Virus record (IMG/VR): IMGVR_UViG_3300025759_014178
Location: 1 to 56,647 of that record
Length of the DNA stretch: 56,647 nucleotides
Reading direction: 5' to 3' (one strand)
Source: a virus
Lineage: Duplodnaviria > Caudoviricetes
How positions within the stretch are numbered: position 1 is the first letter of the stretch; the number at the start of each line of letters is the position of its first letter. The position numbers were made by a program, and so were the translations under genes. Below are positions 5,428 through 55,043 of the stretch, in pieces. Below the pieces are notes generated by a model. The model did no database searches, was not told the origin of the DNA, and saw only the letters and a list, made by a program, of their open reading frames with translations.

Positions 5428-5428
5428 T

Positions 5429-9135: not shown

Positions 9136-10209
9136 TTAGCCTGCCGAAAGCTGCCCGTTTTTGAGCGCTTCCATGGCGTTGTAATAGTCCGATGGGTTTT
9201 CAACCCCTACAAGGGGATCGGCCGGTTGAGGTGGCGCAGTATCGGATCGAGCAGAGCCCGAGGCGATCGGCGCCTTAGTTTGAGGTTGGACTGCTGGTTT
9301 TGCTGGTTCAGATGGTTGGGAAGATTTGGCTTTTGGATCGACAGGGGCAACGCCTTTGCTCTTGGCTGCCATTTTGGCAAGCTGCCAGACGTAGTCCGGC
9401 TGAGAGACGCGGTCGTCACCTGTTTCAATCAGAACACTATGTATTCTGACCATTTCCTGATGGAGATCTGAATTTTCTTTTGCGGAATCAGGGTAGTAGG
9501 TCTCGGCCTTTTGACTGGCTTCACTGACCTGCTGCTGTTGTTGCTGTTGAGCGGTCTGAACCTCGCGCTGTTCGCGGTCGGTCAGAGGCTTCTCGAGCTT
9601 CCGTAATTCGTAAATTTGCTTTTCGATCCGACCTGCCTCGGCTACATCGTAGTCCTCGGTCTGGGCCTTGATCTTTGCCTCCATCAGTTCATCGAGGCGC
9701 ATTTCCAATTCTTCCAGAGTCTGTGGCGCATTTGGATCAACCGGCTCGTCAATCGCTTCACTTTCTTCCTTAGGGACCTCAATTTGAATGCCGGCAGATT
9801 CTGCCAACCTCATTTGAGCTTCCATTTGGAGTTCAGAAAAACTCTTGTCCGGATTTTCCTTTTGGAGCCTCAACACTTCGGCCAGCATTGGGTCGCTGGT
9901 CCTTACGCGCTGCCTATAAACTTCGTCAGACTCTCCGGGCTGCTGTTCGGGCGCCTCGGTGGACTCCTCGCTTGCAGGCTCTTGAGATTCTTCCTCAATC
10001 GGATCGGTCAATTCCTGCGGCGTCTCGCCAGCGGGTTCTTGTGCCGATGTTTCGGTTGGCTCTTGATATTGTAGCGCCGCATCCATCCACGCACTGGGGT
10101 CATCCCCCAACGTGTCAGGCGTTGCAGCATTCTGGTTTTCGGCCCCCAATTGGGTAGCCGCCGTCTCTGGTGGTTCCTGGGCTCTCGCCTCAGACGAATC
10201 CGTTTCCAT
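9136..10209 (-). CDS. Capsid scaffolding protein (start probably 10209 rather than 10218)
   Basis: Very acidic, Glu/Gln/Pro-rich, coiled-coil, immediately upstream of the capsid gene; start inferred from the conserved upstream motif. Confidence 0.8.
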   Translation of the reverse strand: METDSSEARAQEPPETAATQLGAENQNAATPDTLGDDPSAWMDAALQYQEPTETSAQEPAGETPQELTDPIEEESQEPASEESTEAPEQQPGESDEVYRQRVRTSDPMLAEVLRLQKENPDKSFSELQMEAQMRLAESAGIQIEVPKEESEAIDEPVDPNAPQTLEELEMRLDELMEAKIKAQTEDYDVAEAGRIEKQIYELRKLEKPLTDREQREVQTAQQQQQQQVSEASQKAETYYPDSAKENSDLHQEMVRIHSVLIETGDDRVSQPDYVWQLAKMAAKSKGVAPVDPKAKSSQPSEPAKPAVQPQTKAPIASGSARSDTAPPQPADPLVGVENPSDYYNAMEALKNGQLSAG

Positions 10210-10218
10210 ATTAAGCAT

Positions 10219-12053: not shown

Positions 12054-12298
12054 CCGTCCGACTTCATTTGCTTTGAAAGATGCACTAGGTCGCGGTCCGG
12101 TTTTTCAATTACCTTACGGATAGCTTTTGCCTCGTTTCTTTTAGCCTCACGATCTTTGTCAGAAAGTTCTTCGTTTCGAAGAACGTCTTTTTCTAACACA
12201 AGCAAAGATTTTTCCAAATCTATCTTCAGATACTCATTCCAACCTGAACTGTTTAAAAGATTCCGGATTGCCAATATTCGATCTGTATTGTCCATCAA
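12050..12298 (-). CDS. Small portal-linked hypothetical protein
   Basis: ATGA-coupled to the portal stop; LLNSSGWNEYLK helical pattern typical of small post-portal genes. Confidence 0.7.
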   Translation of the reverse strand: MMDNTDRILAIRNLLNSSGWNEYLKIDLEKSLLVLEKDVLRNEELSDKDREAKRNEAKAIRKVIEKPDRDLVHLSKQMKSDG

Positions 12299-14496
12299 GT
12301 CAGTGGCCCCGTGTTGGCCGTAGGTTGTTGCCCTGCTGCATCCATAGCACCTTCAGGCCCACCAGGCAACTCTGACCCCCCTCCGATTTGTATGTTTGTA
12401 GGGATCAAATATCGTTCTGCATTCTGTATCTGGAACGACTTTAAAATATCCACGTAAAACTGCACTGTTTGTAGTTGGATTTGCGGCGGTAGACTGTAGA
12501 ACTCCCTGACAACACTGGCAGCCTGAAGGTTTTGCTGCAACTTTTGTTCCGCGTGATAGCGGGTCATCTCAAGTCTAATATTAAGATCGAGGTGATTGAT
12601 TTCTGCTGGAGACATGACGTCCATTACCGGAGATGCACCTTCAAAAAACTCAAAAACTTCATCTTCATCAAGGTTGGCCATTGTAACCAAGACGGCTTGA
12701 TGAACTAGATCTTCAATCCCGTCTTCAAGATCGGAAACGTAAACGCCAAAAAGCTCATGGCCGCTTAGGTCAATGTTTCGAATACCTGTAGCAAGCTTGG
12801 TGGAGTTTAGGCCGGCCATTTCAGAGTCATTGGCGCTGGCAACCCCACTCATGTTCATCGCCATTTGAAGATTAAACTCAATTAAGTTCTGAAGGTCATT
12901 GGATTTAATATCCTCAAGGTAAACCGTCTCAATTACATCTTGCGCTGTTTTGTCGGGCAACGGCGAATAAGTTCCACCCCAGTTCATCTCGAGGTTTGGA
13001 TTTGAATCACCCTCAATAGTGTTGTAAGGCCGGAAAAGGTCAATTCGGCCAGAGCTTGACTGACTGAAATTCCAACGGTTGAAAGATAAGTCTACAATCT
13101 TTTGGATTGGCTCAAAAATCTCCATGGATCCAATTCCATGCCATCTTCCCTCGACAGGGTTAATTCTAACACATCGGAAGGGGCGCTTTGAGTCTGGCGT
13201 TACATTGGCGACGTGATCATAAAAAAGCGGAATGTTGTTCTTACGATCGTAAACCAAGATCACATCTTCATATCGACCGTCTTCGTTTACATCAAAACGT
13301 AGATAGGTTTCTGCAATTTCGGTGGTTGGCTCCCTTGTCGTGGCTTCAGCCTCTCCCTCTGATGTCATGTCATCTCCCGACTCGTTGAGCTCAGGGCGAG
13401 GCTTGTTTGCGGCCGTGCTTGGCTGTCCGGACTCCGATGCTACTTCTCGAATTAGATTTAGGCCTCGAATGTAGGAATCTTCACTTCCTTGAAGTGAGTT
13501 GTTGTTGACGATCATATCAACTAGCGACATCACCGGCATATCATAAAGGTGACAGATCTGGTCAGCGTCTTGAATCGATTCGGCGTTTAACGGACACAAA
13601 AAATCGCGAAAGTAGACCGTTTTTGATTCTGGCCCCCTGTAATGGGTAACTGTTCTTTCGACTTTTCTAGCCTCGTAATTGCGATTCGCTTGCGTCGGAA
13701 CTGGTGTTACTTGGTCTCGACCCAATATAGACTGGGGAACAAAATCCATTGGGTTTTCACCTTCTGGGATAACTGGTTCAACCTCAATGATGTCATCATC
13801 CGAATAAATGTAGTCGCCATCGGCGGCAATAATTGGATTTCCATCTTCACCTATCATGACCACAGCTTCGGTCTCGTAGGTAACCGACTGGTCAAGATGG
13901 GTCGTTTTAACGACTGCCTCACCCCTTATGAATGCCCCATAAATTGCACGCTCAATCGTCTTTTTAAGCTTCGCTTTCCGAAGTTTAAAATTAGCGTAGC
14001 GGTTTACCTTGTCGGCTTTTTCTTTGTCAGATTCACCTATCGGTGATGCGGCCATGAAAGGCTCAGTTCCTACAAAGTATTTGATTGCTCGGCTGACTTG
14101 TTGCTGAACGATCCTGCGACTAATTGGAACAGTGTGGTTTGATTCTTCAAAAATGCCGCGTAGAATTGACTCTCGCCATTCAACTTGGTTGGCAAAAGTC
14201 ATCTCGTAAATGATTCGGCGCCCTAGAAATGTCTGGGCTGATTTCGCGGCTCTACCGGGATCGCTTGCATACCAATTTACGTCGTAAAGATTTTCACGAC
14301 CCATCTCTCCTTCCAAAGTTTTGTTTCTGGACTCTGCCCATTCGACCAGGCGGTCTTCTTGCTGTCGATTTAACCGTAGTGCTGATTTAATCATAACACG
14401 CGGCTCATCCCTGCGATCAACGGGGGGATATTGCGGGACGTTTTCGAGGACTTTGTCAATTTGAGGTTCTGCCATAAGTCTATCTGGTAGGGCCAA
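12295..14496 (-). CDS. Portal protein
   Basis: 733 aa; AFIRGEAVVK, RPF....NPVEGRWHGIG..E...PIQK..D...N, LATGI motifs of P22/T7-like portals. Confidence 0.88.
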   Translation of the reverse strand: MALPDRLMAEPQIDKVLENVPQYPPVDRRDEPRVMIKSALRLNRQQEDRLVEWAESRNKTLEGEMGRENLYDVNWYASDPGRAAKSAQTFLGRRIIYEMTFANQVEWRESILRGIFEESNHTVPISRRIVQQQVSRAIKYFVGTEPFMAASPIGESDKEKADKVNRYANFKLRKAKLKKTIERAIYGAFIRGEAVVKTTHLDQSVTYETEAVVMIGEDGNPIIAADGDYIYSDDDIIEVEPVIPEGENPMDFVPQSILGRDQVTPVPTQANRNYEARKVERTVTHYRGPESKTVYFRDFLCPLNAESIQDADQICHLYDMPVMSLVDMIVNNNSLQGSEDSYIRGLNLIREVASESGQPSTAANKPRPELNESGDDMTSEGEAEATTREPTTEIAETYLRFDVNEDGRYEDVILVYDRKNNIPLFYDHVANVTPDSKRPFRCVRINPVEGRWHGIGSMEIFEPIQKIVDLSFNRWNFSQSSSGRIDLFRPYNTIEGDSNPNLEMNWGGTYSPLPDKTAQDVIETVYLEDIKSNDLQNLIEFNLQMAMNMSGVASANDSEMAGLNSTKLATGIRNIDLSGHELFGVYVSDLEDGIEDLVHQAVLVTMANLDEDEVFEFFEGASPVMDVMSPAEINHLDLNIRLEMTRYHAEQKLQQNLQAASVVREFYSLPPQIQLQTVQFYVDILKSFQIQNAERYLIPTNIQIGGGSELPGGPEGAMDAAGQQPTANTGPLT

Positions 14497-17400
14497 TATA
14501 TCGGCCGTTTATAAAAAGTTGATCTTTGGCTTCCCTTCGAGCCTCGGAAAGCAACGCTTTGAAATCTTTCAGGTCATCTTCCGTTGGTCTGCTAATCTTT
14601 AACGGGTTAGCCCACTGATTGACTTTGACCGAGAATTTTTGTCCTGCAAGTTTTGAAAACGCATTGCGTTGTTCATCTGTCATATCTTCCCATTCGCCAA
14701 CGCTATTTTTAAATTTGTTTGTGGTAGATCCACCCCAGGATGTCGGGAATGTGCTAATTAGATCAGGGCGCTTTATAGAAAGCGAAGACAGAAACGCATC
14801 GCCTTTGTGAAGATCAGCGGCGGCGTATGGAGTCCGAACTAGCAACCTTGCTGGCCCGACAAGAGTCTTTTCAAGATCTCTTCCGTAAAGGTCGTGCTTA
14901 GGCAGACCAAATGCGCCAACATTTGTCAGACTGTAGAGGTATCCGGATCGATCTCGAGGAACTGGATCAAGCTGTCGAAGCGGCTGCCTAATTAGGTTTG
15001 GAACAAAGCCTCTCAAGAAATCCTTAATGCTTTTTGCAATCTGTTCTTCCGCTTTCTCCGGATTTCGGTTAATCATGTCGTTGCCCATACTGATTGTGTC
15101 AGCAACTGTTCGTATTCCTTGAAGAAAAGTTTTTTCTTGCGCTTGGTTTGCTAAAGATCCAGCAAAGTTTACAAGCCATGTCTGACCATCGGTGTTAGGG
15201 TTTTTCTTAAACTCTCGAATCATGTCAACTGTCGAAGCCAGCACGGTGGAAATAGGCTCGTATCGACCGTAATCAATGTGAATACCGTTTCTTCCGCCAA
15301 TCCGAATGATGGTGCTGCTTCCATATAGACGATCTGCAAGCTGGCGATCCGAGTGTCCACCAGGAGCATAAGGACGAGATCCCACGATAAGCAAGTTTTT
15401 GTCTTCGTCATCTTCGTCCCCTTCTGCGGCGCCAAAAAGAATTGTCATTACGACACTTGCTATGCCCTGCTCTGTAATATCCCGAATCAATTCCGACCGA
15501 CCCGCCTCACCGTAGTTGGCATTGAAAGACATTTTTCCTTCAGGTCCGTAAGTTGCAATTCCAGATTTGATAACTTTGTAGAAAAGATTTGCCGTCCCGG
15601 TTATGGGAGCTTTTCGAAGGCCAATCTCAAAGATTCTGTAGGGAGTTCGGATGAACGGAAACAAAAAGCTAAGTCCCATTTTAATCATCGATTGCTCGGC
15701 TTTTTGTATTTTTGCATTTCGGAATTTTTGAACCATCGACATCCACTGCTCTCTTTTCGAAGCTTCTGGGTCAGCTCGAAATTCTTTAGTAAAAGTCAAT
15801 TCTTTTGCTTTTCCGATTGCAAGAATCCAAGCCGGACTACCGTGTTCCATTAGTTCCTCAATCCGGCTTTCCATTTGATCTTGTCGCAAGTCGCCAACTT
15901 GAACTTGAGCGTTCGCTATTCGATAAGCCTGAACTGCCACTTCGCCCATGGCAATGGATGTCTTAAACAAAGTGTCCATTGCTTGAAGGGCATTTCCAGG
16001 CATTCTAATTATCCTGCCTTTTCGACCTTGAATGCTTGGCAAGTAGGCCGATTCAACTTTAGACGCATCAAATTGGGACACTGGTTCCTGCATAGCCCAA
16101 GACTCGAAAAAGTCGAGCCCGTCATTCTTGAATGAGGACACAGCGTTTCTCCATGCGGGGGCTATTCCTTTAGAAAAACCTTTCCAAAATCTTCGGATGT
16201 CTCCGTATTGAGCTCCTTGAGCTTTGTCGCCTGGAATGATTTGATTAAAAATCGACTCGAGGCCGGTTTGAATAGTTTTGTCCCAGCCAAGGTTTAAAGA
16301 GTTTGAGAAAACATTTATAGCCTGTGTTTGTGGCCCTGATAAAATTGAGTTTATCCAAAACTCATTGATAGCATTGTAAATGTTCCCGTTGAACACTGTA
16401 GCAAGAGTTCGCGCCGCCCAAACTGCGTGCTCCGGTTTTGCAATATCGAACTGGCCACTTTCTTCACCGTGAAATTGGTTTGCGTTCCGGACATCTTCCG
16501 GCACAAGCACAAACTCATCCGAAAGGCTTTGCTCATCCCGTTGCGCCATTTGCTGGGTCGCTTTTCCAAATTCTAGGCGAAGAGCCTTGCGGAAATCTTC
16601 CTCAAACTTTCTGATCTTCTCTTCGGTAATCCCTAGTTTCTTTTGTATCTTTTTGTTTGGCTGCCTATTGAGGATCATTTTGGCAGCGTCTTTGCCTACC
16701 TCAGATCTCATTCTATCTATTGCGGCTTTTACAGCCGGAGCCTGTCTGGAAGCCCTAATTCGATCGCCATTAAAAATATCGCGCAAAGTAACGCCGTAAG
16801 TTCCAAGAACATTCTTGGCGGTCTCCATGCGTTTTTGTTGAATCTCTGCGTCAACTTCGGCTGCTTTGATTTCCTCCCTGAGCGTCTTTAACTCATTTTT
16901 ATAGCGATTAGCTTCCTCAGGACTTTTGGCCTCTGAAATCAATTTGTGAACCTCTTTGATGCGATCTTGACGTTGTGGGTTCATGGCAAGATCTCTAATC
17001 CTGCGTTCTTCTGAGGCGGTATGTTCAGAAAAGCCCAAGAAAGACGCGATCATTTCCGCGTGACGTTCTGCCGGAGTTTTTGATGGGTCTCGGCCGGCCG
17101 CCAGTTCTCTAGCTACCTCAGTGCGCGTCCTTTGGTAAGCGTGAGAAAGAAGCCTCGCTCGTGAAATTGCTTGTGGGTCTTCTGAGGCTGTAGCGTCTCT
17201 CCAAGCTCGTGAAAGGACGATCTTGGCCGCGTAAACCATCTCAGCACTCCCAAGAGATGTGCGATTAGATCCCGCTTCCAGTATAGCGTTTTCAACTGCC
17301 GCAGGCGTTTGGTCGGCCATGCGGCGCCCTTCAGCCATCATGTCAGGCTCGCTTAGCTTTTCGCGCTCTCGATCGTATGCCCATTGAACTACTGAATGAG

Positions 17401-20400
17401 CGGCTCGAACATTTTCATCATCTGAAATATTGGCAAGTCGAGGAACCGCGGTCTGCACTTCTCCCTCCACTTCCTTTTTCCGTTCTTGCAGGTCGCTGAT
17501 AAAATCTGCAAGAGAGCCGACTTCCTCGGAAAGAACACGGGCTGCGTCGACTGCTTCGTCATCAATAGATCCTTCTTCATCTAGGTTTCCAATGTCGCGC
17601 TGGGCGGCCCCTTGGAATACTCTTTCTGCTATTTCAAGATCTCCAAGCCCTTTGACTTCAGCTACCTGAGAAGGCAAAAGCGCTACAGTTTTTGGTCTTC
17701 CACTTCCTTCTTCGTCAACCAGGATTGCGTCGTATCCCTGACTGCGGGACCAGTTTGCAACCAATGGCGTTTCAAGAAGGCCCCAGTGCGCTAGGTCAAC
17801 GCTTTGGTCAATCCATTCCGGAACTGTGTAAGGCCCAGTGATCACTTCAAAATCTTTATCGATGGCAAAGCCCTGCCGGTCCATTTCATCAGCAAGCTCG
17901 AGTTGAGTCTGACTTGGCTCTCCCACTTGGGGAATCCCGCGAAGCGCACGACGACGAATCCCCAGCACGTCAGCAAGGATGTCTCGGACTGACTCCACGT
18001 TATCTTGGAGATAACTCTTGAGGGCCGCTCCGGCTTCTCCGGTTGGGTCTAGCGGGTTTCGAATGTCAACCCATACCGGAACCGGATCGCCATAGTCTGA
18101 GGCGAGTTCAATAGGTCCGACAAAGACCAAGCCAGTGTCTGGACGGCCAGAGCCACTGATGCGGTCACCCCCATGAAAGTAAATTGATTGATCTACCGAC
18201 TCTGGGAAGGCGCTGTCTCGGGCGGCTGCGAATTGACTCAGTCTTCCGCCGCTAGGTCCGGATACTGAAGGAGGTATGCCTCCTCCAGACTGACCTCCCG
18301 GCCCCTCCGGATCTCCATCGCCTCGCGGGTCTCCTGAAGGCCCTCGATCTCCGCTGGGGTTAGGCCCATCTCCGCTTCCGTCATCCCACGCAAAGGAGGG
18401 AGTGAAGTTTGCTGTAAGGGCTGATCGGACATTACTAAAATCGGTTGATGATTTATTATTGTCCCATAATTCAGCGACTTCAGCAACCATTTTCGGACCC
18501 TTGCCAGCAAATATTTGACGGATCATTTCCCAAGTAATCGACTGCATCTGGCGGGGCTGAATACCGCGCTGTGCGGCAGCATCGCGAAGAGCCTCAAGGT
18601 GCGCCCAATAAAGTCCCGTGAGACCATTTCCTGCTGATCCAGAGGTGGAAGTTGTCGTTCCATCTGGAAGGTTGAATCCTGAACTGCTACCAAAATTGAC
18701 TCCTACTTGGTAATCCTTTTGAGCCAGTGGGAACATGAAAGCAGCGGCAACGTGATGGGTGTCGATAGTTCCGTCACCATACCCGTTATTCGGAGCAATG
18801 ATGTTATTGTAAAAATTTCTCACTTTGTGGTCATTGCTGATGGATGCACTAATATTCTCCAGAGATCCATCCTGAAGAACGCTAAACGCATTCCAGACCC
18901 CAGAAGCCGCTTGCCACCCCATGCCGGCAGGCTGTCCCGCTTTTGTCTGGGCTATGCCACCAACCCTACCCTCGGGATAGATCGTCTTGTAGTTCAGCCC
19001 GTGGACCTCACCGGTAAGGAATCGGAAAGCCCAATAGAAATCTGATTTAACCTTTTTGTCTTTCGTCGCCTCGGTTAGCAGGTCACGGAGTGTTTTTCCT
19101 TCCGCGTATGCCAGTTCTTCTGGCACGCTTTCATACAAGGCAAATGACTTAGGATCTTTGGCGTCCGCTTTTCGGATGGGGCGGTCCATGTGATTTTGCC
19201 AAACGTCCATAAGGTTGTGTCCCATCTGCACGTTCTGAAACCAATCTTTTCCTGGGCTTAGAGTGGCAAAAACGCCAGCGGCCTGTTCAGCAGTAACTCC
19301 ATAATCAGAAGCGGCATTGTCGGCCAGAATCCTCGCCCCGTCATACCAAAGCGAAGCCCTTTGCCTGAGTTTTTCTCCGTTGGGAATAGTGTCATAAAGG
19401 TCATGGAGGAAAAGTAGGTTTTCGACAAAGAAGTCATGAAGGCGCTTGGCTCTCGTTTCAGCAGTCAGTCGTTTGTCTGAAAAGTATCTCGGAAGTGGCA
19501 CCTCGATCCCCTTGATCTTTTTCGCGATGCGATCATATCGAGGCAACGTGAAGTGGGTCATCATCCCCATCTGTTTTTCAAGATGCTCAGGCGCGACCCT
19601 TTCTCTGGTCACGATATCTTCTTGGCTGGGTATTTTGTTCCCCTGTTTGGCTGTGCCAATACGGGAAGCATCGTGGATGGAACTTACGGAGTTAAACCCA
19701 CTGCTCCCAGAACTTCTCTGCGCGGGAAACTGACGCTGGGCGGCTTCTTGAAGCAAGTCGGATTTAGGGTTAAACCTCTGGCTGAGAGGGATCACGTTGC
19801 CGTCTGCATCGCGGGTTACGGGGTCGGCGGATTTGATGAATCCTCTCTCAAGATAAGTGGAGTAACGCTTTGCGGCATCTTTACTTACCATCCAATCAGA
19901 ATCCAAAGACCCTTGATGGTTCAAGGCAAAGTCTACCAATTTAGTTGATACCCCATCCCCCCTAAATTCAGGAGCGACATACATCGCAAAAATCTTAGGA
20001 GGTCTTCCGCTAGGGCGACTACCAGGATTATCTGATGAGACAATAATAAACCCACGAGCCTCACCTCCAACCTCCAGGCTATATCTGGTGAATAAGCTCG
20101 CCCCTGTCACGCTTGTATATGTGCTTATATTTCCATATCTACCTGTTGCCTCCTCCATCGACCCATCGAAGCTGATTGCTTGTGGGGCATTCCAGCGAGC
20201 GAATTGCTTCTCTGTTTTTTCGTCCAACTTCTCGGCGTTTTGCAAATTCTTGATTTGATTGGGAGTAATCCCAATTTTTTTAAACGCCCACTTAGCCATG
20301 TAGTCGTTGCGTCTCCAATACCCCGCAGCCATAGCCGCCTCATCGACCATACGCTGCGCCGTCTCCATGTCGCCGGACTCAACTGCTGCCAAGTAGTCTG

Positions 20401-23400
20401 CATCCTGCTTGGATGAGATACGGGATGCGATGTCCCGAGGGGCTGCCCCTTGCTCGCCTGTCGGAGAATCAAGAAACTCTGCGATCTGAGGTAGCTGGTC
20501 AGCCACTTCACGGGCAGCAACTGCCGAAGTGGTGGAGTTTCTGTCGTCAATCGGTGAGTCAAACTCAATCACCACAATAGAATTTTCACCTACCCCTCCG
20601 GCTGCTTTGATGGTGCCGGGTTGGTTATTATCGCTAGGGGAGGTGACCCTTTTCCCTACCAAGTCTTTTTGAATCCTGCGAAGGTCTTTTGCGGGTAGGG
20701 CATCCGGCCTGAATCCAAGCCAAAATTTAAACCCTTCATCCGACAGCGTTCCAGATGGGTATAGAGGCTCCTCGAGATTGGACTCAGCCGCTCGATACAT
20801 CGCGGTCGCTACCCCGCGACGTCGGAACTCGGGCTTGACGAAGGTCTTGTAGGACATCCTCCTGCCGCGCTCATCCCATCCCCTGGAATGCAGGGCTAGT
20901 TGGCCTGCAAGATTCCTCCCCACGTAAGCACGATAGACATCATCCCCCATATCCTTTACTTGGATTCCATTTTCTTCGTAAACGACCGGCCTAGAGGCTG
21001 CGCTTTGGTCACCAGCCCTACCGGTGGTGTGCTTGAACCACTGTTCTGCGGTAGGCTCTTTCAAAGCGATCAGGACCTCACCGTCTCTAATCACGTTACC
21101 TTTGCCGAACACGGTCTCGATGAGTCCGCGGTAGTAGTTGAGCGATTCACCGACCTGAAATTGATCGCGATCACCCACCTGACCCTTTTCAGGAGCTCTG
21201 TAGATCGTAACGTAGAACTTCCCTCCGGGCTTGAGGGCATTCTCAGCTTGAAGAATAAGTCGCCGCTGGTTTGTCTTCTCGGGGATGAGGTTCAGGACGT
21301 TGTTGGTCACCACCACATCAGACTTTCCGTCAATCGCTTCCGCAAGTGCCTTTTTGACGTCGTCGGATCTTTCTTCCCACTGTGGGTCATAAGAGTAAAA
21401 CTGAGCTCCCATTTCCTCCACCGCGCTGTCGGCGTAACGAAAGGGTCCTGTCCCAATGTCGAGAACTTTTTGACCTGGTTTTATCAGGCCTTTGTCGCTC
21501 AGGTATCTGTATCCGGCTGGGATTCCTCCGGCATTGCCTCGCGCCGTGTCTTTAGACGAGAATCTCTGTTTTGGCTTGCCCCATAGGTCAATGGATCTCC
21601 GAGCCGCTCCCTGAGCTCTGTTTTCAATTTGGCGATCTTCTTCCGCTTTTCTTCCTGCCTCGAGGCGTCGATCAAGATCTTTGAGGGTCCACTCGACTGG
21701 TTTTTTGCGGTTTGGCTTTCCTCCTGCGAGGAGCCAGATTTGGGAGTTTGTGAGAGTAGCGACTGGGGAGAGTGCATGCTTTGATAGTAATTCAGATACG
21801 GCTTCAATTCCACCAATTTCACCTTCGCGGTAATAATCATCAATATACGTGAGGGCTTCGCTTGTTGGCTGAAGAACCCATCCAGGCCCATTTTGTGGGC
21901 TATTTGGAGAAGCTATCGCAACAGATGCCACCACGGTCCCTCCCTGCTCTTGAATGTAAGAGCGCATTGAGTTGAATGTAGAGCCCGAAGTGGAAACGTC
22001 GTCAACTAAGACGTATTCTTTTGTAGGATCAATTTCACCGCCATATTGAGGAACTCTGAAAAGTCTTTCCCACGCATTGGCTTTGGTATGATTTGCCTGA
22101 CCTACCTCGTGGAGGCTTTCCTCCATTGGCATCCCCGTCGTGTGGGAGATCCAAGCGGCCATCGCTTCTGGAATTGCGTTGGTGAAATTATTTTCTCGAC
22201 TGTTAGGAGTCGCAAGCACGGCACCTGGATAGAGACTTGCAAGCTCCTGAGCCTTCTCTGGTTTCATTACTTCCGTAACGATTTCCATAGCAGCATCAAG
22301 GTCACCTTTTTTGGCTCTTTCGTGACGGGCTTCCTTCTCTGATCCCTTCTTGCCTTTGAGCGCGACTAAGGTCGAGTGAGACTGGACCATAGGAAAATTC
22401 ATGGGCCAAGTTTGCATCTCGCGCTGAGCTGCGTTTTGACGTTTCGGTCTCGTCCGGAATACTTTAGTAAAATCCAATTCCCCTTCTTGACCTGTCATCT
22501 GGTCTCGGGCTTGGAGTTTATAATTGTCCGTAGAAATAACTTCGAAAGAACGACCTCCATGGTCGATCGACCGGATTGTATCTCCGCGTTTAAGATCTTT
22601 GCTGACGGCCCAGATCGAAAGTGCTGCGGTGGCTTCTTTAGGATTGTCAAACATCCCGATCACTTGCCTCTCGGGGCGCCCTACCTCTACATGCCACATG
22701 GTGTCCGGGTGCTTGGATAGGTGGACAAGTGCGCCTGACTTCCTGATGGCGTGCATCTGGTATTCGCTTCGGGCAAGTTGATCAGCTTCAAATCGCTGGG
22801 CGCTTGCTTGTAGGCCTTTTGGTTGGGTCGCTGCGTGCTGGAGAATGTGCTCAATGACTGGCACGGCCCACGAGTTTCCGGCCCCTGCATATTTATTCCC
22901 GTTGGCAACATCGGGAACATCGCTCAAATATTCATCTGGCAATCCCATCAAGCGAGCCGTTTCGGCCATCGAAAACTTTCTGTATTGCCCTTGTTTGTCT
23001 ACAAGCAGGTTTTTTGGATAACCTTTGTCCATCGACTTGACTAGGGCCATAGCCTTCGGGCGCCTGACGTCGGAGTGATTGGAATTGTTCCAACGAATTG
23101 TTCCATTGGCCTTAGGTTTGCTCATGAAGGCGTCGACCTTCGCCCGATTCCACAGCAAATCTTTTGAGGCCCGTGGTTGGATTACATGCTTCAGTTCAAC
23201 CCCAATGTCCATTGGTTGAGTCACTGAGATATTGGTCCAATAAAGCCGATCCCTGTTTGCTCCCGTGAGAAGATTGCCATTTATCCGAATTGGGGCCACG
23301 CCCAAGGCGCGGGTGATGATCGCCTCGTCCTCAGGCTTCATCCTGACGTTCTCGAGGAGGAAAAAGCGTGGTGCAGTTTTCTTCCAGAGACGCACATAAT

Positions 23401-26400
23401 CCCAGAACAGCTTTGAACGAGGGTCTTCCATACCCTTGCGCTTCCCTGCGCGTGAAAACCCTTGGCAGGGCGACCCTCCCCACAACAAATCGATTTTGGG
23501 GATTTCATCGCCTGTGACTTTAGTCACATCACCTAGTTCTTGAATGTCTGGGTGGTTGTGTTTTGCAATTGCGATTGCCGATTTCTCAATTTCAGAACCG
23601 TAGTAGTTATCGACCGGAACCGCTAGGTTTTTAAGCGCCTGTCGACCGGCCGCAATTCCATCAAACAATGACAAAACGTTCCAGCCGCCGTTTGGTCCGG
23701 ATCCCTTCGGCCATTGAATGTCGCCCGATACTTCAATTAGACGTCCGGCCCTGTCGCGGGTGTTCCCGAAGGCATCAGGTCGTCGATTGATGGACTGTCG
23801 GCGTGCAGCCGCTTGAAGATCGGGTAAACTTTGTTGAGCAGACTGTGTCCGTTCGGTTGCCTCAGTATCGACCTCACTACCGACCTGAGATGATTCCTGG
23901 TCGACGCGTGAGCCAGGTGCGATATCCACATTGCTTCCAAGTCGGAAATTGGCGCCGTCTCGGCCTGTTGGGGTTCCTTGGATGAATACTGCGTAGTCAT
24001 GGGAGTCATTTTGGTCTTGTTGGGAATCTACCCGTTGGAGAAACTGTTGTAGATCGGTTTCTGTGAAAATTGTCTCGAGGTCATCCGCGAGTTCATCAAT
24101 AATATTTAAGTTCTCAAGAGCCATTCTTGAGACGTTTTCTGTCAATTGATAGGTATAGTTTTCGCTGGCATCTCCAAACCCGCCATTGTGGGTAATCTCG
24201 TGGAGCATTGTCGTGACAGAATCGGTGGCGAATTTCCTAACGATGGTCCCGTATTGATCAAGTCCCAGGCGTTTGCTGTTTTCGATGGATCGGTTTAAAA
24301 TGATTGAAGGGTCGAGAGAAATTGCATACTCTTTTTCCCCAATGACATTTAAGTCTTGTTCGCCTACGTGAACCTTAGTTTTGTAGTTCACTCCGATTGC
24401 ATCTTGACCGATGTTCCAAGCGACTAGGTCTCCTTTTTCGGCGGCGTCAAAACCGTTATCCATCAAAACCGTTTGAACTCGCTTGAATGTAGCGGCCATT
24501 TTGGCAAACAGTTGGTTTGACGGCTCGTGGTTGACAATCTCTTGCGCCAGTTCAGAATTGCTCCCTGAAACGTCTACGACCCGGATATTCCGGACGCTTG
24601 GAAGTGTCATTGTTGGCGATGCGTCCCAACGGGACTTGAGCGCCTTATTCTTGGACACCATGGCGTCCTGTTCGTAGTTCTTGTAGAACGATTCATTACG
24701 GCCTATTGCAACACCGTGAAAATTGTCTCTGCCGGCTGTGAAGGGGTAATCGTCATGTGTGGCATCGACATTAGGATGAACATCGATAACGAGTTTTTCG
24801 GGTAGTTGGACTTGCGCTGTAATGTCGGCAATTGTCGAAAACTGCCATATTCCTCGGTTGAGAACTTGTATAACAAGACGATTGCTGGAAACCAGATTTT
24901 CAGATCGGTAAATTTTGTAGTTTGCCTCTAGCGCGTTGACCTGCTTGATGAACTCAAGATCTTGTGAAGTGTTCTTGAGTCTTTTAATGGCTTTTCGCCC
25001 TTCAGGAGTTTTCTCAGTAAGATCATCTACAGAAAGACCGGCACCAGTTGTCCCTATTTCAAATTCGGTGCCTGTTGTGTCGTTTTCAGAAATCAATTCA
25101 AAAGTTTTCTCTGCCATAGAGAAATCAAATTGGACGCTGTCGTCGATCGTTGATCTAACCCGAGTGTAGGTAGTAGGTTTTCCGGTGACGTAGACGGAAT
25201 CCTCCATTTCAGATGAAAGATATTTTTTAAGCGCCTCTCCAAGCTTTATATCTTCTTCTGCTACACTGAATCCAAAGTTTGAAAAATATGCTTGTTCTGG
25301 CGATCTGCCGATGAAGCCTGCAAAATCGTCACCTTTGTTAAAATAGCCCTTTAGAACAACGCCGTTCCATTCTTCATCTACACTGACCGGTTCTTGATTC
25401 AACGGTCTCAAACCAGCCTCTGGAAATTTTTCAGCCCAGTGGTCGTAGATTTTCTTTTGCAGCGGCGGTGGAAGCTGGCCTATGAGGCCTTTAAAAGTCC
25501 TTGAAATATCGCTTAATCCAGACGCATTCGAATCCTTCGTAAACGCAGAAAACCTATCAATAAATTTTTGGTCTACATCTGCAAAAACGTCGATTTGGTT
25601 TTCAATGTAACTGCGATATTCTGCCACTGAACTTTTAAGAGCATCAGCGCTCCCATGATACCTATCATCACCAACCCAAGAACGGACCCAGTCATCAAGA
25701 TAGCCTGAAATTTGGCTTTCCTCATCATTGATAATTGAAGCTATTTCTTCAATGGATTCTTCATTTTGAAACACCTCTGGTAAATTTGGAATCAATTCAG
25801 GAGATACTTCTAGTCTGACTTGATAGCCGGCGTGCTTGAACCGTATGCCTTCAGGAAAGGCATTACCAGTTGGGAGATATTTGCCTGTGAGTTCGGCATT
25901 AGTTTGGTTAAACCACTCGCTTTCTATTTTGACTTCTTCGGGCTCGAGCGCCTCGCTTGGCTCAAAATTCCTTTCGGTCAAAATCCGAACGCCGTTTGGA
26001 TCTTCATTTATGGTGTTTTCCCAATTTTGGGCATCACCAGTCATGATAGTTTTTGACCAGGATCCATCCCGCTCTTGGTAAACGGTCTCGACTTCAAATT
26101 GCTTGGAGTTTCCAAAAATGACAGCTTTTGCAAGTCCGTAGCCGCCGGCGCCGTCAGTCTCTTTAAATGATTTGGTAATGTCGACCAAGGCGCTGGCCAC
26201 AACTTCGGGCGGCATACCGTGGCCAGTATCAGTTACTTCGATAACACGGTTTTCTGGGTCGAGAAATAACGTGACCTTTTGGTCTTGTGGGCGCTGACCT
26301 TTTGCGATTTGTGGTCGAATAGCGTCGAGAGAGTTCTGAAGGAGCTCTCTGACGATCACCGTCCCCATATCCTGACTGTAAATCTTTCCTCGAGCTACAT

Positions 26401-29400
26401 CTATGATGTCGGATTTCTTCGAAGTAATCAACGGTTTGACCTCTTCAAAGCCTGCCCGTTTTGCGGCCCACTGAAGCGGGTCACGGCGCTTTCTTGCGAC
26501 TCCCCCAAACATACCGTAGACGGGCTTAGCATCAAATACCATTGCGTGGACGGTGTCCATTTCGTTTACTTGGTCCATGCCAGGAAAGTAAGTCGTCGCA
26601 TCCATTATGATGCCGTCATACCCCATCCGGCGCAGCCCGAGCCCCAACAGGAATCCACCTACACCTGGACCTACCGGAATCATGCTGTCGGTGCGCGACC
26701 AAGATTCCGGCGTCATTGGATGCAACCCGAAGACTCTCTGGGCAATTTCGGTCATCGTCATTGAGCCATATTCGCTCAGTTGCAGCTTGGCCTGTTGAAT
26801 CCCATCCCTGAGCTCGGCTATTCCTATCTCGCCAAATTCAATCAAGGTCTCCTCGGCGGTGAAGGAGTCGCGGAGCTCATCTAAAATCCCATTAAAAAGT
26901 TCGGCAATCTCGCCTGATTCGCGAGGGTCATAGTTGGTCTCAAAAGCCATCTCCTGAGCAGCTTCATTGATCTCGTCTTCTTTTTCGCTTTTTACGTAAT
27001 TCTCGAAAGTTCCCAAGTCAGGATAAAGCTCTAAAGCGTCTTCGTATTCCTGCCGCAAATCGGCTTCGTTTTCGAGAATGAGTTTATTTAAAGCATCTTC
27101 TTTGTAAGCGTCTACCTCGTAGTCGATTTCAAAAGTCCACCGGGGCTGATCAACCTCGTATGGCATAATCTGGAACCATTTTTTCCCGTGAAGATAGACT
27201 GGCGTAATCCTTGGGGCATGTTCTACCTCCATGATTTCCTGCGCCTTTAGCATTGCTGTCTCTATATCGAGCCCCTCTTCCTCTGCAATTCTGTCTGCCA
27301 ACTGAACCTGTATTTCTTCGCCGGCCCCATCAGGGTGATTGTCGTAATCGGCATACGCGGAAGCGTCACCAACGTTATTTGTGAAGTAAACCCCAGGCCC
27401 AAGAAAACTACTTGGCCGGCTTGGTATGGAAAACAGGTCGTCGTCAAAGTGGCCGCGATAAAAAGCAACTGGAGTGCCGTCAGGGTTTTTAGTTAAAGGA
27501 TGAGAGTCAGACCAAATTTGAGTTAATTCTTCTGGGTCCTCGCGAAGGGCTGCGTTCTGGATAGGCACCTCGTCGTCGTCCCAGTATTCCTCGCTGTATT
27601 TGGGGAAGTAGTCGTCGATCAACTCATACTCGACCGCTTTCTGGTAGAACCCCTCGGCATCTGCGACGATGTCGGCAACTTCAATCTTCGCATCCCCTCC
27701 CAGTTCACTCCTGAGCCATGCCAGCATGTCCATCCCGGTTACACCGGTCCCGTAACGGAAGACGCCAGTGATGACCGCATCCACATCAGGATCATGATCC
27801 ATGCTGCGGATATTGGCAGGATCCTCAGTCCAGGTGAGATCGTTCTTATCGCCCTCACCCCACTTGGCGTGCTTGTATCCGGTTGGAATATACAGATCAG
27901 TGTCTAGGTCGTCCCCTGTCAGAATTGTGCGAGGATTCGGAAAATTTCGCGGTGCAGCCCCCTGATCTGGGCCAAAGCGATCGGTCGGAAACGGCTGATC
28001 GATTTTCCGAGAACTTCTTTCTACATCCCTTGCTGGTGCGCTTAAATCTTCGGTTCGCTGATTGCGACCCCTAATTTTCGCGGCTTTGTCGAGTTGTTGC
28101 TGAATCGTCTTTTCGGCTTCCTTAGCAATGTTTTCAACTGCTCTCAAATTGAGTCCAAGTTCTTTTCCTATCCGAGTGCTGGAAAACCCTTTGCCTTTTC
28201 GCTCCATTACTTGGCGCTGCTTAGTCGGGAGGGTCTTAACTATGTCGTCTTTAATAATTTCGCCATACCTCCATGCTTCGGCCTCAGACTGAGCGTTATA
28301 GGACAGGATCTTTTCTATTAAATTTGGTCGGATAGTTCCAGGCCGCCCTTCTGCGGGAACCTTTAATTTGTCCAAAAGGTTTTCAATTTCTTGCTGAGCA
28401 GCTTGAATGGCCTCTTCTGCAAAATTCTGACCGCCTTTCTGGGCTGCTTTTTTCAACCCGCGATCAGCGGCTGTGATAAGCTCTTGAACCGACACTCCTG
28501 TTTGGCGGTATTGGGCTGCTACCATCAACGAAATTCCTGATTCGCGAAGATACTCAATCCGATCCTTTGGCGTCTTAATAGTATCGGGGGCTTTTTCTTC
28601 CGCGAACAGGTTCAATGCACCAGACTCTATCTGATTCATTGCTTCAATCGTGTAATCCCGGATGTCCTCAATTTGACGCCTGATGTCTGGATCAAGGTTT
28701 GGATCCTGCAACGAAAAACCAATTGCTTCTGCAAGACTCTCAAGTAACTCGAGGAGCTTGTCCCACATATTTTTGGGCGGCAGCAGCGCCACTGACACTT
28801 GTCCGGTTCGAGCTTGCTCGATAACCATGTTAAGATACTCGTGTCCCATGTAGACCGGATCAAGCATACGCTCAGCCATCTCTCGGTATTGTTCAGGCCA
28901 TTCTTCAATCGGGACAGAGGTAAGGTCGATCCCGTCCTGACGCATCGCCTTGTCGTAAGTGTAACTAAAATACGCTTGGCCTACTGTGTCTTTTGTCTCT
29001 TGGCTAAGTGCCTCGTAAATTTCAGCTACTCTTTCGTCACCGCCTACACTGCGGAGTAACCATCTGACAATATTGTGTGTTGTTTCTTCCGCCATCACCC
29101 CGTCGACAAAGTCAATGGCTTCTTGGATAGATCCTCCTTCCGCGATTCCACTAAGGGCCGCTCGAATGATGTTGGCTGGGTCAACGCGAAGATTTCCAGT
29201 TTGAGTCACCGCCGCTGGTGAAGCCATTCCTTTCATGACTTCCACGTTTCTAAACGCCCCTTCCAGGGCTTTAGTTCGCTGGGCAAGTCGCTCCATTAGC
29301 ATGTAGGCAACGTTTGCAACTTCCTGCTCGGTCAAGTTTGGAAACGATCTTCCTAAAGAGCGCACAACATCCTCTACAATTTGAGGGCCGGCCTGCCTAA

Positions 29401-32400
29401 ACTTGGCCTCACCTGGACCTTGTTGGCCTTGACCAATTCGGAACATGCGAGGGTCATAATCTGGGATCTGACCGACTGTTTCGTCGACCGGAGTATCCTG
29501 TGCTTCTTGTTGCAGTCGCTCTTGTTCTGCAAAGCGATCGCTGGGCAATGGAATCGTTTCTTGTAGTTCGGGCGTTGGGAGTTCACCCATCCGGCCGTCT
29601 TCAATACGTTTGACGGTCTCATCTCTCGACATCTCCACAAGCGCGGCCTGTGCTGGAGCATTTTCAGTTGCCCATTCTATGATTTCTTTATTTACTACCG
29701 GCACCCCTTTGAAATCTTCAATAGCAGGACCAACTCCCAGTTCCTCGTTACCGTTTCGAACTAAGTCCCAGTCGGAATCAGAAAGATATTCGGATCGTCC
29801 TTGGGCAATCTTAGTAGCAATGTTTGCCTGTTGAATCCGAACCCGCTGTGCTCGAAGTTCATTGAGGGCTTTTTCGGCTTCAGCCGCAGCAACAAAACCG
29901 CCAGATTTCTCAGCTTCGAAGAATTGCTTTTCGGCGGTCGCAATGTCCTCATCGATTTGAGCAAGTTGTTCTGCGTTTTCTCTTGTGGCGATAACCTGTC
30001 GGCCCATGCGGCGACCGGCATCTTGCCCTTGCAGCGCCAGTGCGGCCGTCAAAGCCATTTCGGCTTCGCGAGTCTGTGGAGAATCCCAGCCATACGTTTC
30101 AGTGGCGCTTTCTAGCTCCTTTCGCATGACCGCGACAGACTTTCCTCCTGGTTTCGCGGCTTCGCGTGAACCACCGTAAGTAGCGTTGATTTCATCAACT
30201 TCTTCTTGCGTGGGTGGCGCCGACCCATCAGGCATGTTCTCGTAAATAGCTTCCGCAGCATCTTCTCCCTGCAAAGCCTCGAGTTTTGCTTCGGTGGCAC
30301 GAGTAGCTGCATCGATCAAAACGTCTTGACGCCTTTTGGCCTTTCTGAACTTACGACCCAGCATCAAGTTCTCAATGATAGTTGAGCCAAGGCCCATCAA
30401 ACCACCAATCGCGGTTTCTTCGACGATTTGAGTGCCATCTTCGGCAATTCTCTCATTAAACCTTTCTACAAATGAGCGCCCGAGATCTGGGCCGTAGTCG
30501 ACTCCTCCAGCTTCAACCCTTCCTGGGGTAGGAAGAGTAAGTTCGCTTACCGTTACGTTTCCAACGGCCACAAGCCCTTCTTGCCCCCCTTCCGCCAGTG
30601 TGTTTGCAAGAGCGCTGTTAAACTTGCGCCAAAACGTAGGCGGCACTTTGGTCATGTCGACCATTTTGAAAATTCTTTCGATCGGCAAGCCCTCGGTGTA
30701 GCCCAGCCCCATGTAGCCGATCATCGTAAGAATGGATTTTTGAATATTGACCTGTTCGTCAAAATCCAAGTCAGGGTCTGCCGCAGCTCTTTCGGCGGCC
30801 ATTTCAAGTTGCCGAAATCCCTCAGTTGAGTTCACCATTGCTCCCTGAAAGCCTATGAGGCCTAACGGGTGGCTGCCAGCAAAACTAGACTTAGGTCCAA
30901 AACGAAAAATCTTTTCTTCTGGAGACGCTCTTCGAATAAAATTTGATCCCCGCATCGCTCCGGACCTCAAAAGGGACGCCCTGCCAATTAAACCTCCAGC
31001 CCAAAATCCACCCATAGAGCCAAGTCCGGTCATTCCATGAGCAAAGTAGTTTCGATCGTTCAATGGGTTTGTGCCACTTTGCACACCTTCCTCAACCGCT
31101 TCCGCCCACCTTACAAGCGGGTTGTTTTCAATGTCTTCACCAATTACTGCTGAAATGTAATCAAGCTCTTTACCAATTTGCTTTTGAGCATCGGTCGAAA
31201 GTTTTTTGTAAGATTGGCTGTCTTGAAACACTTCCAAAGCTTTTCGATATTGAACAGCGTTGATTTTTTGGGGCGGCATCCACTCTCCGGTTTGCTGGTT
31301 TTTTCCGCCGCCTACCTCGGCTCGCCTAATCGTGTCCTCAGTCCAAATATTGTATTCTTTGCCATGCTCGACATATTTTTCTGAAGGCCGTCTTACCAAT
31401 TCGTTAATCGAGTCTCCTGGTCCCATCATGTGACCAAGAGTCAAAACTCCTTTGGCTGGAAACATATTGACGGCACCAGAAAGAATCCTGATCGGCGCGT
31501 CTGAAAACCCTTTTGGATTAAACCCTTCTCGGCGAGCCTCTTCTCGGACCATGTCCTGAAGTTTCTTCTCCTGCTCGAGGCTAAGTTCCAAATCTCGGCG
31601 CTCTACAAGTTGAATGTTCTCGCCATACATGCCAGCCATCTCGCCGACCACCACTTCACCAAAGAGCTTTTCCGCAAGGCGGTTTTTGAGTTGCTCCTCA
31701 TAAGACAACATCATCATGATCTTGTCTCGGTAGTCGAGAACTGTCATGGGATCTAACATGACTAAGCCGCCATTTTGCTTACGATATTCGTCCAGCGCTT
31801 CCATGTAATCGGTCGAGATGGGCGTATCTGATACGTTTTCTTTTACCCACTCGTCGATAAACGGTTCCAAAGCTTCTGGTTGTTCCAACGACATCCCAGC
31901 TTTCCGAGCTAAATCGATTACTTGAGAGAAGTCACCGCCGCCAGCAAACGCTGCATTTCTGAGGCCCAGGATCTGGTCTTGTAGTTCATTTCTCTCTCTG
32001 CCAAGTCCACCTGGTCCGTAGATTTCGTCGACTTTCTGTTTGTAAAGTCGTTCTCCCTCAACTTCATCAAGAGTCCCAGCAGCGACTTGATTGAATATGT
32101 CTTGAACTCCAGACTTTTTAAATAGCTCTTCGTTGCGCCGTTTGAACTTCTCTATCAAAGCAGACGTAGCTGCGATTTTTTCTGGAGTAATTTGCAACTC
32201 TTCGACGGCAAATTCTGAAGCTTGGCCTCCGCTCAAAACAGCCCTTGTGTCCTCAAGAAACGAAGTCACTATTTCGGGATCAACTCCCACTGGGGCTTTG
32301 TAATCTTCAAACGGGTCAAACGCTGAAGTTTTGAAAATGCCTTCCCCCATCTCCAATCGCAATCTAGGATCTTCGACAACTTTAATTTCTCTTCCGGCTG

Positions 32401-35634: not shown

Positions 35635-35643
35635 ACCCTCTTT

Positions 35644-35668
35644 CTGAGTGGTGATGGCCAAATGTCAA
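35644..35668 (-). promoter_or_regulatory. Putative late promoter TTGAC-N14-ACTCAG (copy 2)
   Basis: TTGAC 35668-35664, ACTCAG 35649-35644, 9 nt to ATG 35634. Confidence 0.7.
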
Positions 35669-55032: not shown

Positions 55033-55043
55033 GAGATAAATAG

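Follow-up and report, generated by a model that had tools for sequence, protein, structure and literature searches.

Polyvalent proteins join many unrelated effector domains in one chain that is predicted to be delivered together with the DNA, and the main text of the paper describing them already predicts their processing by embedded zincin-like peptidases and draws the analogy to the polyproteins of RNA viruses (Iyer et al., 2017; PMC5512222). The subject of this analysis is a giant gene of the same general kind on IMG/VR virus record IMGVR_UViG_3300025759_014178 (Duplodnaviria; Caudoviricetes), of which the window, the whole contig of 56,647 bp, was analyzed. In the central part of the encoded protein, modules are separated by 12 copies of a six-residue peptide, Q-x-[A/S]-A-x-R (hereafter the tag), which marks module boundaries, bounds exchanged cassettes and, in related giants, is spelled differently from lineage to lineage. 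A sequence-only reading of this DNA had taken the tag for a protease site and the arrangement for an undescribed system; the latter claim was overstated, since polyvalent proteins and their predicted zincin-like processing are in print. Systems of this kind are known; what is new is the combination of the tag and its co-variation with an EExxH zincin-like family and an internal-virion anchor. The main text of PMC5512222, the supplements of which may hold alignments showing such a motif, gives none for cleavage or boundaries, and the boundary tag and its lineage-specific spelling were not found in the literature searched (full-text searches, and PMC5512222 as main text without supplements). The giant family further differs from the polyvalent proteins presented there by an internal-virion-like anchor and an N-terminal region of ~2,100 amino acids (aa), neither of which is discussed under those names, and by a zincin-like domain that has no Pfam family and is mostly of the EExxH type. 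The signature domains of polyvalent proteins (ART-PolyVal, LPD1/3/5, ddrB-ParB, MuF_C, InPase, RadC and Zeta toxin) are clear in homologous giants.

The closest design analogue, by analogy and not by homology, is the MARTX toxin of Vibrio, a very large carrier with a central string of exchangeable effectors, whose built-in protease is described in the available text of PMC2900308 as cutting after Leu (small-Leu-small) in unstructured inter-effector segments after delivery. MARTX relies on a cysteine protease activated by inositol hexakisphosphate and acts on eukaryotic targets, whereas the candidate protease here is zincin-like, the vehicle would be a phage capsid and the site, besides being longer, is specific to the lineage; for the cysteine protease domain, no Pfam match at E <= 0.01 was obtained over the giant protein, and no search aimed at that domain was made. 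ArdC of plasmid R388 (PMC7213743; 6sna) also belongs to an element that sends proteins into a new host, and its metalloprotease domain is the best structural match of the zincin-like domain discussed below; it differs in being a small two-domain protein that, according to the main text of PMC5512222, is transferred uncut. Podovirus internal virion or ejection proteins (T7 gp14-16 type) resemble the giant protein through the predicted-structure matches of its C-terminal module and the position of its gene in the structural block. The internal proteins and Alt of T4, as well as inner-body proteins of the phiKZ type, are packed into the head, trimmed by a prohead protease at a short consensus and injected with the DNA; such cargo consists of separate gene products with targeting propeptides, and the dedicated prohead protease also cuts capsid and scaffold. 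Here, by contrast, the cargo forms one chain, no prohead protease gene was found in the open reading frames (ORFs) scanned, and the capsid proteins contain no sites. Polyproteins of eukaryotic RNA viruses have short sites (Q|G for 3C-type enzymes) that co-evolve with an embedded protease. They employ other proteases and share no domains with the giant protein, and a double-stranded DNA phage needs no polyprotein for expression, so that the point here would be co-packaging. In the available text of a recent preprint, gp47 of phage phi24B, a 2,811-aa LPD/MuF-C protein, was found in podovirus virions by proteomics and is proposed to be an ejection protein (bioRxiv 10.64898/2026.04.10.717836).

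An exact search for Q.[AS]A.R in the giant ORF returned the 12 copies that had been reported, at the same amino acid and nucleotide positions, all within the central 3,450 aa and none before aa 2104 or past aa 5554, thus none in the first 2,100 or last 1,000 aa. In 2,000 composition-preserving shuffles of the protein, a null that ignores internal duplications, the mean number of copies was 0.30 (standard deviation 0.55, maximum 3); for Q.AA.R, 11 copies were observed against 0.196 expected. The codons of the fixed residues vary over the 12 tags (Q is CAA in 8 and CAG in 4; the second Ala is GCC in 7, GCA in 3 and GCT in 2; Arg uses six codons) and the 18-nucleotide (nt) sites have a mean pairwise identity of 60%; selection therefore acts on the peptide and the repeat is not in the DNA, as had been argued. 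No other called gene of the contig contains Q.[AS]A.R, the sole other copy lying in a frame antisense to a gene, and the looser [QL].[AS]A.R occurs once each in three other ORFs and is absent from the capsid, scaffold-like and portal ORFs. Compared with random positions of the same region, the flanks of the tags are more polar (hydropathy -0.84 vs -0.55) and have a higher fraction of disorder-prone residues (0.64 vs 0.55). The giant gene and its tags are as follows (the relatives P0002, P0003 and L001 are described below):

14480..34273, minus strand: giant gene, 6,597 aa, 35% of the 56.6-kb contig, encoding a ~730-kDa chain; polyvalent or internal virion protein, probably carried within the phage head
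28109..28243, minus strand: weak sigma-70 region 4 match (aa 2011-2055) just ahead of tag 1; E 0.00099, below cut-off
27947..27964, minus strand: tag 1, QGAAPR (aa 2104); P0003 has an insertion of ~170 aa between two tags here
27542..27559, minus strand: tag 2, QNAALR (aa 2239)
26456..26473, minus strand: tag 3, QWAAKR (aa 2601)
23798..23815, minus strand: tag 4, QAAARR (aa 3487)
22793..22810, minus strand: tag 5, QASAQR (aa 3822)
22421..22438, minus strand: tag 6, QNAAQR (aa 3946); homologous LNAAKR in P0002
21596..21613, minus strand: tag 7, QGAARR (aa 4221)
20990..21007, minus strand: tag 8, QSAASR (aa 4423); collinearity with P0002/P0003 stops at aa 4405
20435..20452, minus strand: tag 9, QGAAPR (aa 4608); left border of the cassette that L001 has exchanged
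19715..19750, minus strand: tag 10, QEAAQR (aa 4842), immediately followed by a degenerate QFPAQR (aa 4848); right border of the exchanged cassette
18218..18235, minus strand: tag 11, QFAAAR (aa 5347)
17597..17614, minus strand: tag 12, QGAAQR (aa 5554); start of the family-conserved C-terminal region, LGAAER in P0002
16538..16555, minus strand: degenerate tag QQMAQR (aa 5907), ~35 aa ahead of the conserved core

The degenerate QQMAQR at aa 5907 (nt 16555), which had also been pointed out, is present in the sequence and is kept in P0002 and L001 and as QQMAER in P0003; in P0005 a full tag, LRAGPR (3953), stands in the equivalent zone, with the core beginning at ~4000.

Splitting the protein at the 12 tags yields 13 pieces of 2103, 135, 362, 886, 335, 124, 275, 202, 185, 234, 505, 207 and 1044 aa. 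Pfam identifies a GHKL ATPase, a C5-MTase (methyltransferase), a SAM-MTase and DUF7178 above or near the cut-off and, as weak matches below it, ART-PolyVal, PRTase and two GNATs; several biochemically unrelated domains are thus joined in one chain, as in polyvalent proteins, with ART-PolyVal (E 3.7e-4, 21.7 bits against a cut-off of 31.2) as the only polyvalent signature domain. Among the module labels that the sequence-only reading had given to 11 pieces, GHKL, C5-MTase and SAM-MTase and, weakly, ART, PRTase and the GNATs were recovered, while 'GNAT-like', 'glycosylase-like' and 'ART-like' stay unconfirmed because pieces 2104-2238, 3822-3945 and 5347-5553 have no Pfam match. The best Pfam stretches of the giant protein all lie between tag sites, and the same is true of 14/14 Pfam rows in the relatives P0005, P0026, P0008 and P0021; a sigma-70 r2-r4 module of P0026 (2797-2959) is bracketed by sites 2754 and 2973, and the sigma module of P0008 is likewise bracketed by tags. 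As a separate observation, the GNAT-like module at aa 4608-4841 (19751-20452) is framed by two short and highly conserved segments, …DADYLAAVE…MV.EAA… and …DPVTRD..GNVIPLSQRFN…, which frame ART-PolyVal domains in hundreds of other proteins (60-90% identity, 10-20% of the query); they may represent a conserved adaptor that accepts different enzymes.

Module swapping at the motif, which had been put forward as a check, was found in homologous giants. The query (P0001) is collinear with P0002 to aa 4405, close to tag 4423, and again from 5555, next to tag 5554, and both P0002 and P0003 differ from it between about these two tags; at the first site, P0003 additionally has two tags with ~170 extra residues between them. 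The locus L001, 97.5% identical downstream at the nucleotide level, is without the GNAT cassette (window aa ~4593-4847) and has in its place 2.4 kb bounded by QGAAQR and LFAAQR, encoding a 790-aa cassette for which no Pfam family was found. The left break of this replacement lies 31 nt before QGAAQR, and homology resumes one base ahead of the first base of LFAAQR. At aa 4842-4853 the window has the tandem QEAAQR-QFPAQR where L001 has only one hexamer, LFAAQR, in the second place, and from its sequence the tandem looks like the scar of a cassette insertion. Over 21 lineages tested with patterns picked from the de novo lists described below, ends of BLAST high-scoring segment pairs (HSPs) were enriched within 25 aa of tag sites relative to random positions in 21/21, and HSPs spanning a site were fewer than at random positions in 19/21. 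In the close relative L003, the longest open frame of the giant gene begins only at nt 3196 of L003:1-3200, and the gene seems to be interrupted or misassembled upstream.

A search with aa 5900-6597 provided 83 related proteins of 3,631-7,117 aa, with P0001 being the query's own sequence. Their Pfam domains include ART-PolyVal, LPD1/3/5, ddrB-ParB, MuF_C, InPase, Kinase-PolyVal, Zeta toxin, RadC, SNF2 helicases and sigma-70. Q-type sites number 7 in P0002, 7 in P0003 and 6 in P0004, and 0 to 3 in the other 79 relatives. At homologous sites of P0002/P0003, Q is exchanged for L (QNAAQR/LNAAKR, QGAAQR/LGAAER, QGAAPR/LGAAPR), and the private modules of both proteins are bounded by L-x-A-A-x-R. All patterns with four fixed positions in six residues were then enumerated de novo in each of the 83 proteins and compared with 83 shuffled controls; the top pattern exceeds the best of the 83 shuffles in 26/83 proteins (p < 2e-7). 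In 19 of these 26 the pattern has the same shape as the tag, among them L.AR.N (8 and 7 copies), L.SSP (10 and 7), L.MG.P (6), L.AG.R (7), AK.MP preceded by L-x (6), L..QPQ (6), L.SR.A (6), L.S.PA (6, with L.SAP also 6), LSAP (6) and ISSQ (5), and the remaining 7 are other kinds of repeats. An enumeration with three fixed positions (L.ab) had too little power and was discarded.

A second handle on the spelling is the conserved anchor '...IPLSQRFN-xxxx-[SD]-[IL]', which is followed by a hexamer that differs by protein: QEAAQR in this phage and QEAAFR, LYAGSR, LQARRN, LKARPN, LYSAPA, LFSSPT, LRMGAT or LRASAP in others. When positions 1, 3, 4 and 6 of the single anchored hexamer were fixed, without using other copies in the definition, the resulting pattern recurred at 0.55 per 1,000 aa in its own protein and at 0.038 in the other 82 proteins, with at least two further copies for 13/21 anchors. 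All tags of one protein thus change together, lineage by lineage, which is what recognition by one co-evolving partner predicts; the suggestion that relatives use equivalent lineage-specific motifs is borne out by both approaches. In 120 further proteins of 411-2,000 aa (P0213-P0332), the segment IPLSxRFN-xxxx-I-[R/L]-[Y/F]-S provides 124 anchors in 103/120, the successive residues being I in 116 of the 124, R (76) or L (20), Y/F (86) and S (64), with a frequent '...DIRYS...' ending. Judged by these sequences, the tag of the giant family appears to be a dialect of a more widespread boundary motif. Where a protein of this set has several such modules, it repeats a variant of its own (RASRQG, NYSIGI, TNPVV, RNPRT, AAMAPR and others), recent duplication not being excluded. 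The identity of anchors within a protein (0.67 vs 0.21) was not used as evidence, because the duplicate filter was ineffective and all 22 pairs passed it. On a side note, the decoration protein gp84 of phi24B is cleaved between domains whose linkers share only 'SSP' motifs (SISSP), as described in the available preprint text (bioRxiv 10.64898/2026.04.10.717836); these linkers resemble the L-x-S-S-P tags of P0081 and P0057, and the polyvalent virion protein of phi24B carries a peptidase domain.

The suspicion that a protease resides at aa ~1650-1880 led to a domain that is family-wide and has a predicted zincin-like fold. The two metalloprotease-like elements of the giant protein are:

28589..29332, minus strand: family-wide zincin-like domain, candidate processing protease (aa 1648-1895), with A-E-E-T-T-H (E1730, H1733), Y1768 and E1812
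24188..24202, minus strand: HEITH, a second HExxH (aa 3358-3362), located within the GHKL module and retained by the nearest clade, P0001-P0004, alone

An iterated hidden Markov model (HMM) built from aa 1640-1900 finds the first of these domains in 62-67/83 relatives over its iterations, and E1730, H1733 and E1812 are invariant in 64/64 aligned members, following the pattern [E52/H10/Q2]-E-x-x-H ... Y ... G-H-E-[F/Y]-x-R-M. The AF2 model (predicted local distance difference test, pLDDT, 87.2; predicted template modelling score, pTM, 0.82) places an N-terminal helix, three strands, the ExxH helix and a later helix with the Glu in succession, the same order of elements as that described for the zincin core in the main text of PMC5512222. 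The putative third ligand, E1812, is part of G-H-E-[F/Y]-x-R-M, which lies on the model's helix 167-184. A structural comparison with 48,161 chains ranks the ArdC metalloprotease domain first (6sna_A; Z 6.5, under the tool's safe level of 8; root-mean-square deviation 4.3, 142 aligned residues, 7% identity), and SPRTN, minigluzincins (jannalysin, selecase, abylysin), HtpX, IRAP and PprI recur at Z 3-5. In an Atlas search, the sole lead was a weak one to LPD23, present in 18% of one cluster. A complex prediction of the domain with the 41-aa stretch around tag 12 scored 0.01 against a mark of 0.32 and was used neither way. With its predicted zincin-like fold, the domain at aa 1648-1895 is a reasoned candidate for the tag-cutting protease.

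The C-terminal module is common to all relatives and lies next to the structural genes, the stop of the giant ORF overlapping the start of the portal gene directly downstream:

14483..16453, minus strand: C-terminal helical module (aa 5941-6597), resembling predicted podovirus internal virion structures
12295..14496, minus strand: portal gene (SU10_portal, E 7e-20)
9136..10218, minus strand: scaffold-like gene of 360 aa, acidic, of low complexity and without protease signature, between the portal and capsid genes
7561..9096, minus strand: major capsid protein gene

The same contig carries capsid, terminase-like and tail-fibre genes, which links the giant gene to virion genes. An exhaustive HMMER search with aa 5555-6597 retrieved 1,735 representative clusters at E <= 1e-3, the match being at the C terminus, among the matches listed, of proteins of 385 to 7,117 aa. 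The AF2 model of aa 5941-6597 (pLDDT 74.8) is almost entirely helical. No solved relative was found with Foldseek against PDB (nothing at E <= 1e-3), a profile search of the module's alignment against PDB sequences gave nothing meaningful, and a VIA-align search with the 657-aa model produced helical-bundle noise only (best Z 6.2) and was set aside. In BFVD, which holds predicted structures annotated by similarity, there are 51 matches at E <= 1e-3, including an 'internal virion protein' of Synechococcus podophages and of a Pelagibacter podophage (TMq 0.42-0.59) as well as ART-PolyVal and LPD proteins. On the strength of these models, the C-terminal module is most likely a conserved anchor and the central region its cargo, which would be packaged with it. 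We read the whole, with an N-terminal part of ~2,100 aa that contains the zincin-like domain, a center of 11 cargo modules and a helical C-terminal module of ~650-1,000 aa, as a probable polyvalent internal virion protein.

The reading that we favor, with a probability of roughly 50%, is that the tags are processing sites of a co-evolving built-in protease, which would release the cargo enzymes once the chain has been packaged or injected; that the chain is packaged and cut, which protease cuts it and when are what we infer here. The C-terminal module would take the chain into the procapsid beside the portal, the [Q/L]-x-[A/S]-A-x-R between modules would be the recognition site of the co-evolving protease, and the best candidate for that protease would be the protein's own [E/H]-E-x-x-H domain. 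Cutting at the tags inside the head or after ejection, the zincin-like domain would generate 11 cargo enzymes, comprising methyltransferases, acetyltransferase-like, ADP-ribosyltransferase-like and PRTase-like enzymes, a GHKL ATPase and other modules without label, in addition to the N- and C-terminal parts. The absence of the tag from the scaffold-like, capsid and portal proteins, together with the lack of a maturation protease among the ORFs scanned, points to a built-in enzyme. One protein, P0213, ends naturally in '...D-I-R-Y', which hints at a cut after the second tag residue; in zincins it is often the primed side that is recognized, Leu occupying P1' and a small residue P3', a preference that would place the cut before the L or Q. 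In its extended form, which we hold more tentatively and at somewhat less than even odds, the system would be a private 'address code': a lineage's own tag ([Q/L/R]-x-small-x-x-x) would stand at every boundary and be read by a co-evolving zincin-like protease (mostly EExxH), tag-flanked enzymes would be co-packaged via the C-terminal anchor and freed in the next host, and '...D-I-R-Y-S...' would represent the general form of the tag.

Several results weigh against processing by the built-in domain. The position of the first zinc-binding His is occupied by Glu in 52/64 members, by His in 10/64 and by Gln in 2/64, and this phage itself has A-E-E-T-T-H; since this is not a canonical HExxH, the domain could be non-proteolytic. 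The last HMM iteration misses 16/83 relatives, of which a motif-pair regular expression picks up 3/16, and the zincin fold matches stay under the safe level already given. Foldseek with the zincin-like model found nothing in PDB at E <= 1e-3, and for aa 1648-1895 neither a Pfam family (scan of 19 alignment members) nor a meaningful PDB-sequence match (profile search) was obtained. No pattern rises above the shuffle null in 57/83 relatives. The shuffle null is blind to internal duplications, and the HSP-end test drew its patterns from the very lists that proposed them. The claim that tags never fall inside domains holds for the best Pfam stretches; one PHROG alignment, phrog_116 (aa 3513-3849), extends 27 residues beyond site 3822. 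About a dozen small ORFs of the contig were outside the protease scan.

An uncut tag is the first alternative to be weighed: it could be a docking, packing or translocation element recognized by a common partner (the portal, the inside of the capsid, the ejection channel or the C-terminal module), or it could act as a hinge that allows the unfolded chain to traverse the tail one module at a time. Concerted lineage-specific change requires only a common partner and not a protease, and behind modules of the ART-PolyVal type the tag continues the conserved segment IPLSxRFN-xxxx-I-[R/L]-[Y/F]-S, so that it might be the end of a folded adaptor. A further point that counts against processing is that N4 vRNAP, ArdC and TraC1, all with peptidase domains, are reported in the main text of PMC5512222 to be transferred uncut. 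Nevertheless, the tag is also found behind unrelated modules (C5-MTase, PRTase-like, SAM-MTase, sigma) that have no other shared flank, its flanks are polar and linker-like, and eleven enzymes tethered in a 730-kDa chain would be hindered at separate targets; we therefore regard an uncut tag as unlikely.

Somewhat more unlikely still is cleavage in trans, be it by an unrecognized head-maturation protease, by HEITH (aa 3358) in the GHKL module or by a host protease after injection. The form L-x-small-x recalls the assemblin site of herpesviruses (V/L/I-x-A|S) and the sites of phage prohead proteases, and HEITH is kept in P0001-P0004. Assemblin-like peptidases are found at the C termini of some polyvalent proteins (PMC5512222, main text). 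Release during head maturation had been suggested by the sequence-only reading, but cutting by a head-maturation protease found no support: no maturation-protease family was detected in 30 ORFs of the window (the giant gene counted once; Pfam and/or PHROGs), a scan that divergent proteases can escape, the only peptidase match in these ORFs is an M15 cell-wall enzyme, and the gene between portal and capsid encodes the acidic scaffold-like protein. The scaffold-like, capsid and portal proteins contain no tag, and the all-helical C-terminal module has no protease-like match. As for HEITH, an HExxH of any kind is present in just 32/83 relatives and in none of the strong-tag lineages P0014, P0015, P0042, P0021, P0058 and P0026, while a host protease would not explain why related phages have different tags.

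The tag could also be a demarcation or recombination motif for cassette exchange without a role in processing, comparable to the VENN motif that bounds the exchangeable toxin tips of CdiA. Cassette swaps do start and stop at tags, once to the base, and the tandem QEAAQR-QFPAQR resembles a junction scar. Varying codons and 18-nt sites of 60% identity, however, fall short of what homologous recombination needs, breakpoints at tags are equally expected where intact linkers are selected for, and the concerted change of the tag between lineages is left unexplained, which makes this explanation rather improbable. Coincidence or a compositional effect in an Ala/Arg/Gln-rich protein is almost certainly not the explanation, for although Ala is the commonest residue (9.3%), the shuffles never exceeded 3 copies and the 12 positions coincide with module boundaries and with the tags of relatives.

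The genome is probably complete, at ~56.5 kb, because it carries a terminal direct repeat of ~148 nt: an exact copy of nt 23-148 forms the last 126 nt (56522-56647), and with at most 5 mismatches the repeat reaches nt 1. A 457-aa ORF adjoining the giant gene upstream (34288-35661, minus strand), in which Gln, Gly and Arg are abundant, matches no family and may encode a further internal virion protein. The portal and scaffold-like genes are separated by a 352-aa ORF of opposite orientation (10995-12053, plus strand) that matched neither Pfam nor PHROG. RecT (E 3e-30) beside a PD-(D/E)XK nuclease (DUF3799; 47765-49946, minus strand) forms a recombination module, one that could favor cassette exchange. 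Other genes encode an M15/VanY-type cell-wall peptidase that is likely the endolysin (37693-38367, plus strand), a separate DNA methyltransferase (41079-42401, plus strand), an FkbM-type methyltransferase (567-1307, minus strand) and one tRNA-Met (55043-55113, minus strand). Searching 4 kb of the window with blastn against a phage collection gave no match, tblastn of the C-terminal module against 50,697 phage records gave one weak match to Roseobacter phage CRP-361 (24% identity, 41% of the query), and a viral_contigs scan gave only 3 close loci. Three relatives, P0063, P0066 and P0017, are encoded in Luteolibacter genomes (on contigs of 1.17 Mb and 370 kb) and in a metagenome-assembled genome of Verrucomicrobiae, so that part of the family, at least, exists as prophages of Verrucomicrobiota.

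Polyvalent proteins are regarded as a major means for phages and plasmids to supply a newly entered cell with ready-made counter-defence enzymes, and how their domains are freed has been a matter of prediction since 2017, which a tag readable from the gene would make directly testable. The family is large, with 1,735 representative clusters sharing the C-terminal module, and almost absent from cultured phages. A lineage-specific boundary tag would explain how cassettes are exchanged without breaking the carrier, and it would allow thousands of unannotated giants to be split objectively into modules, many of them of unknown function.

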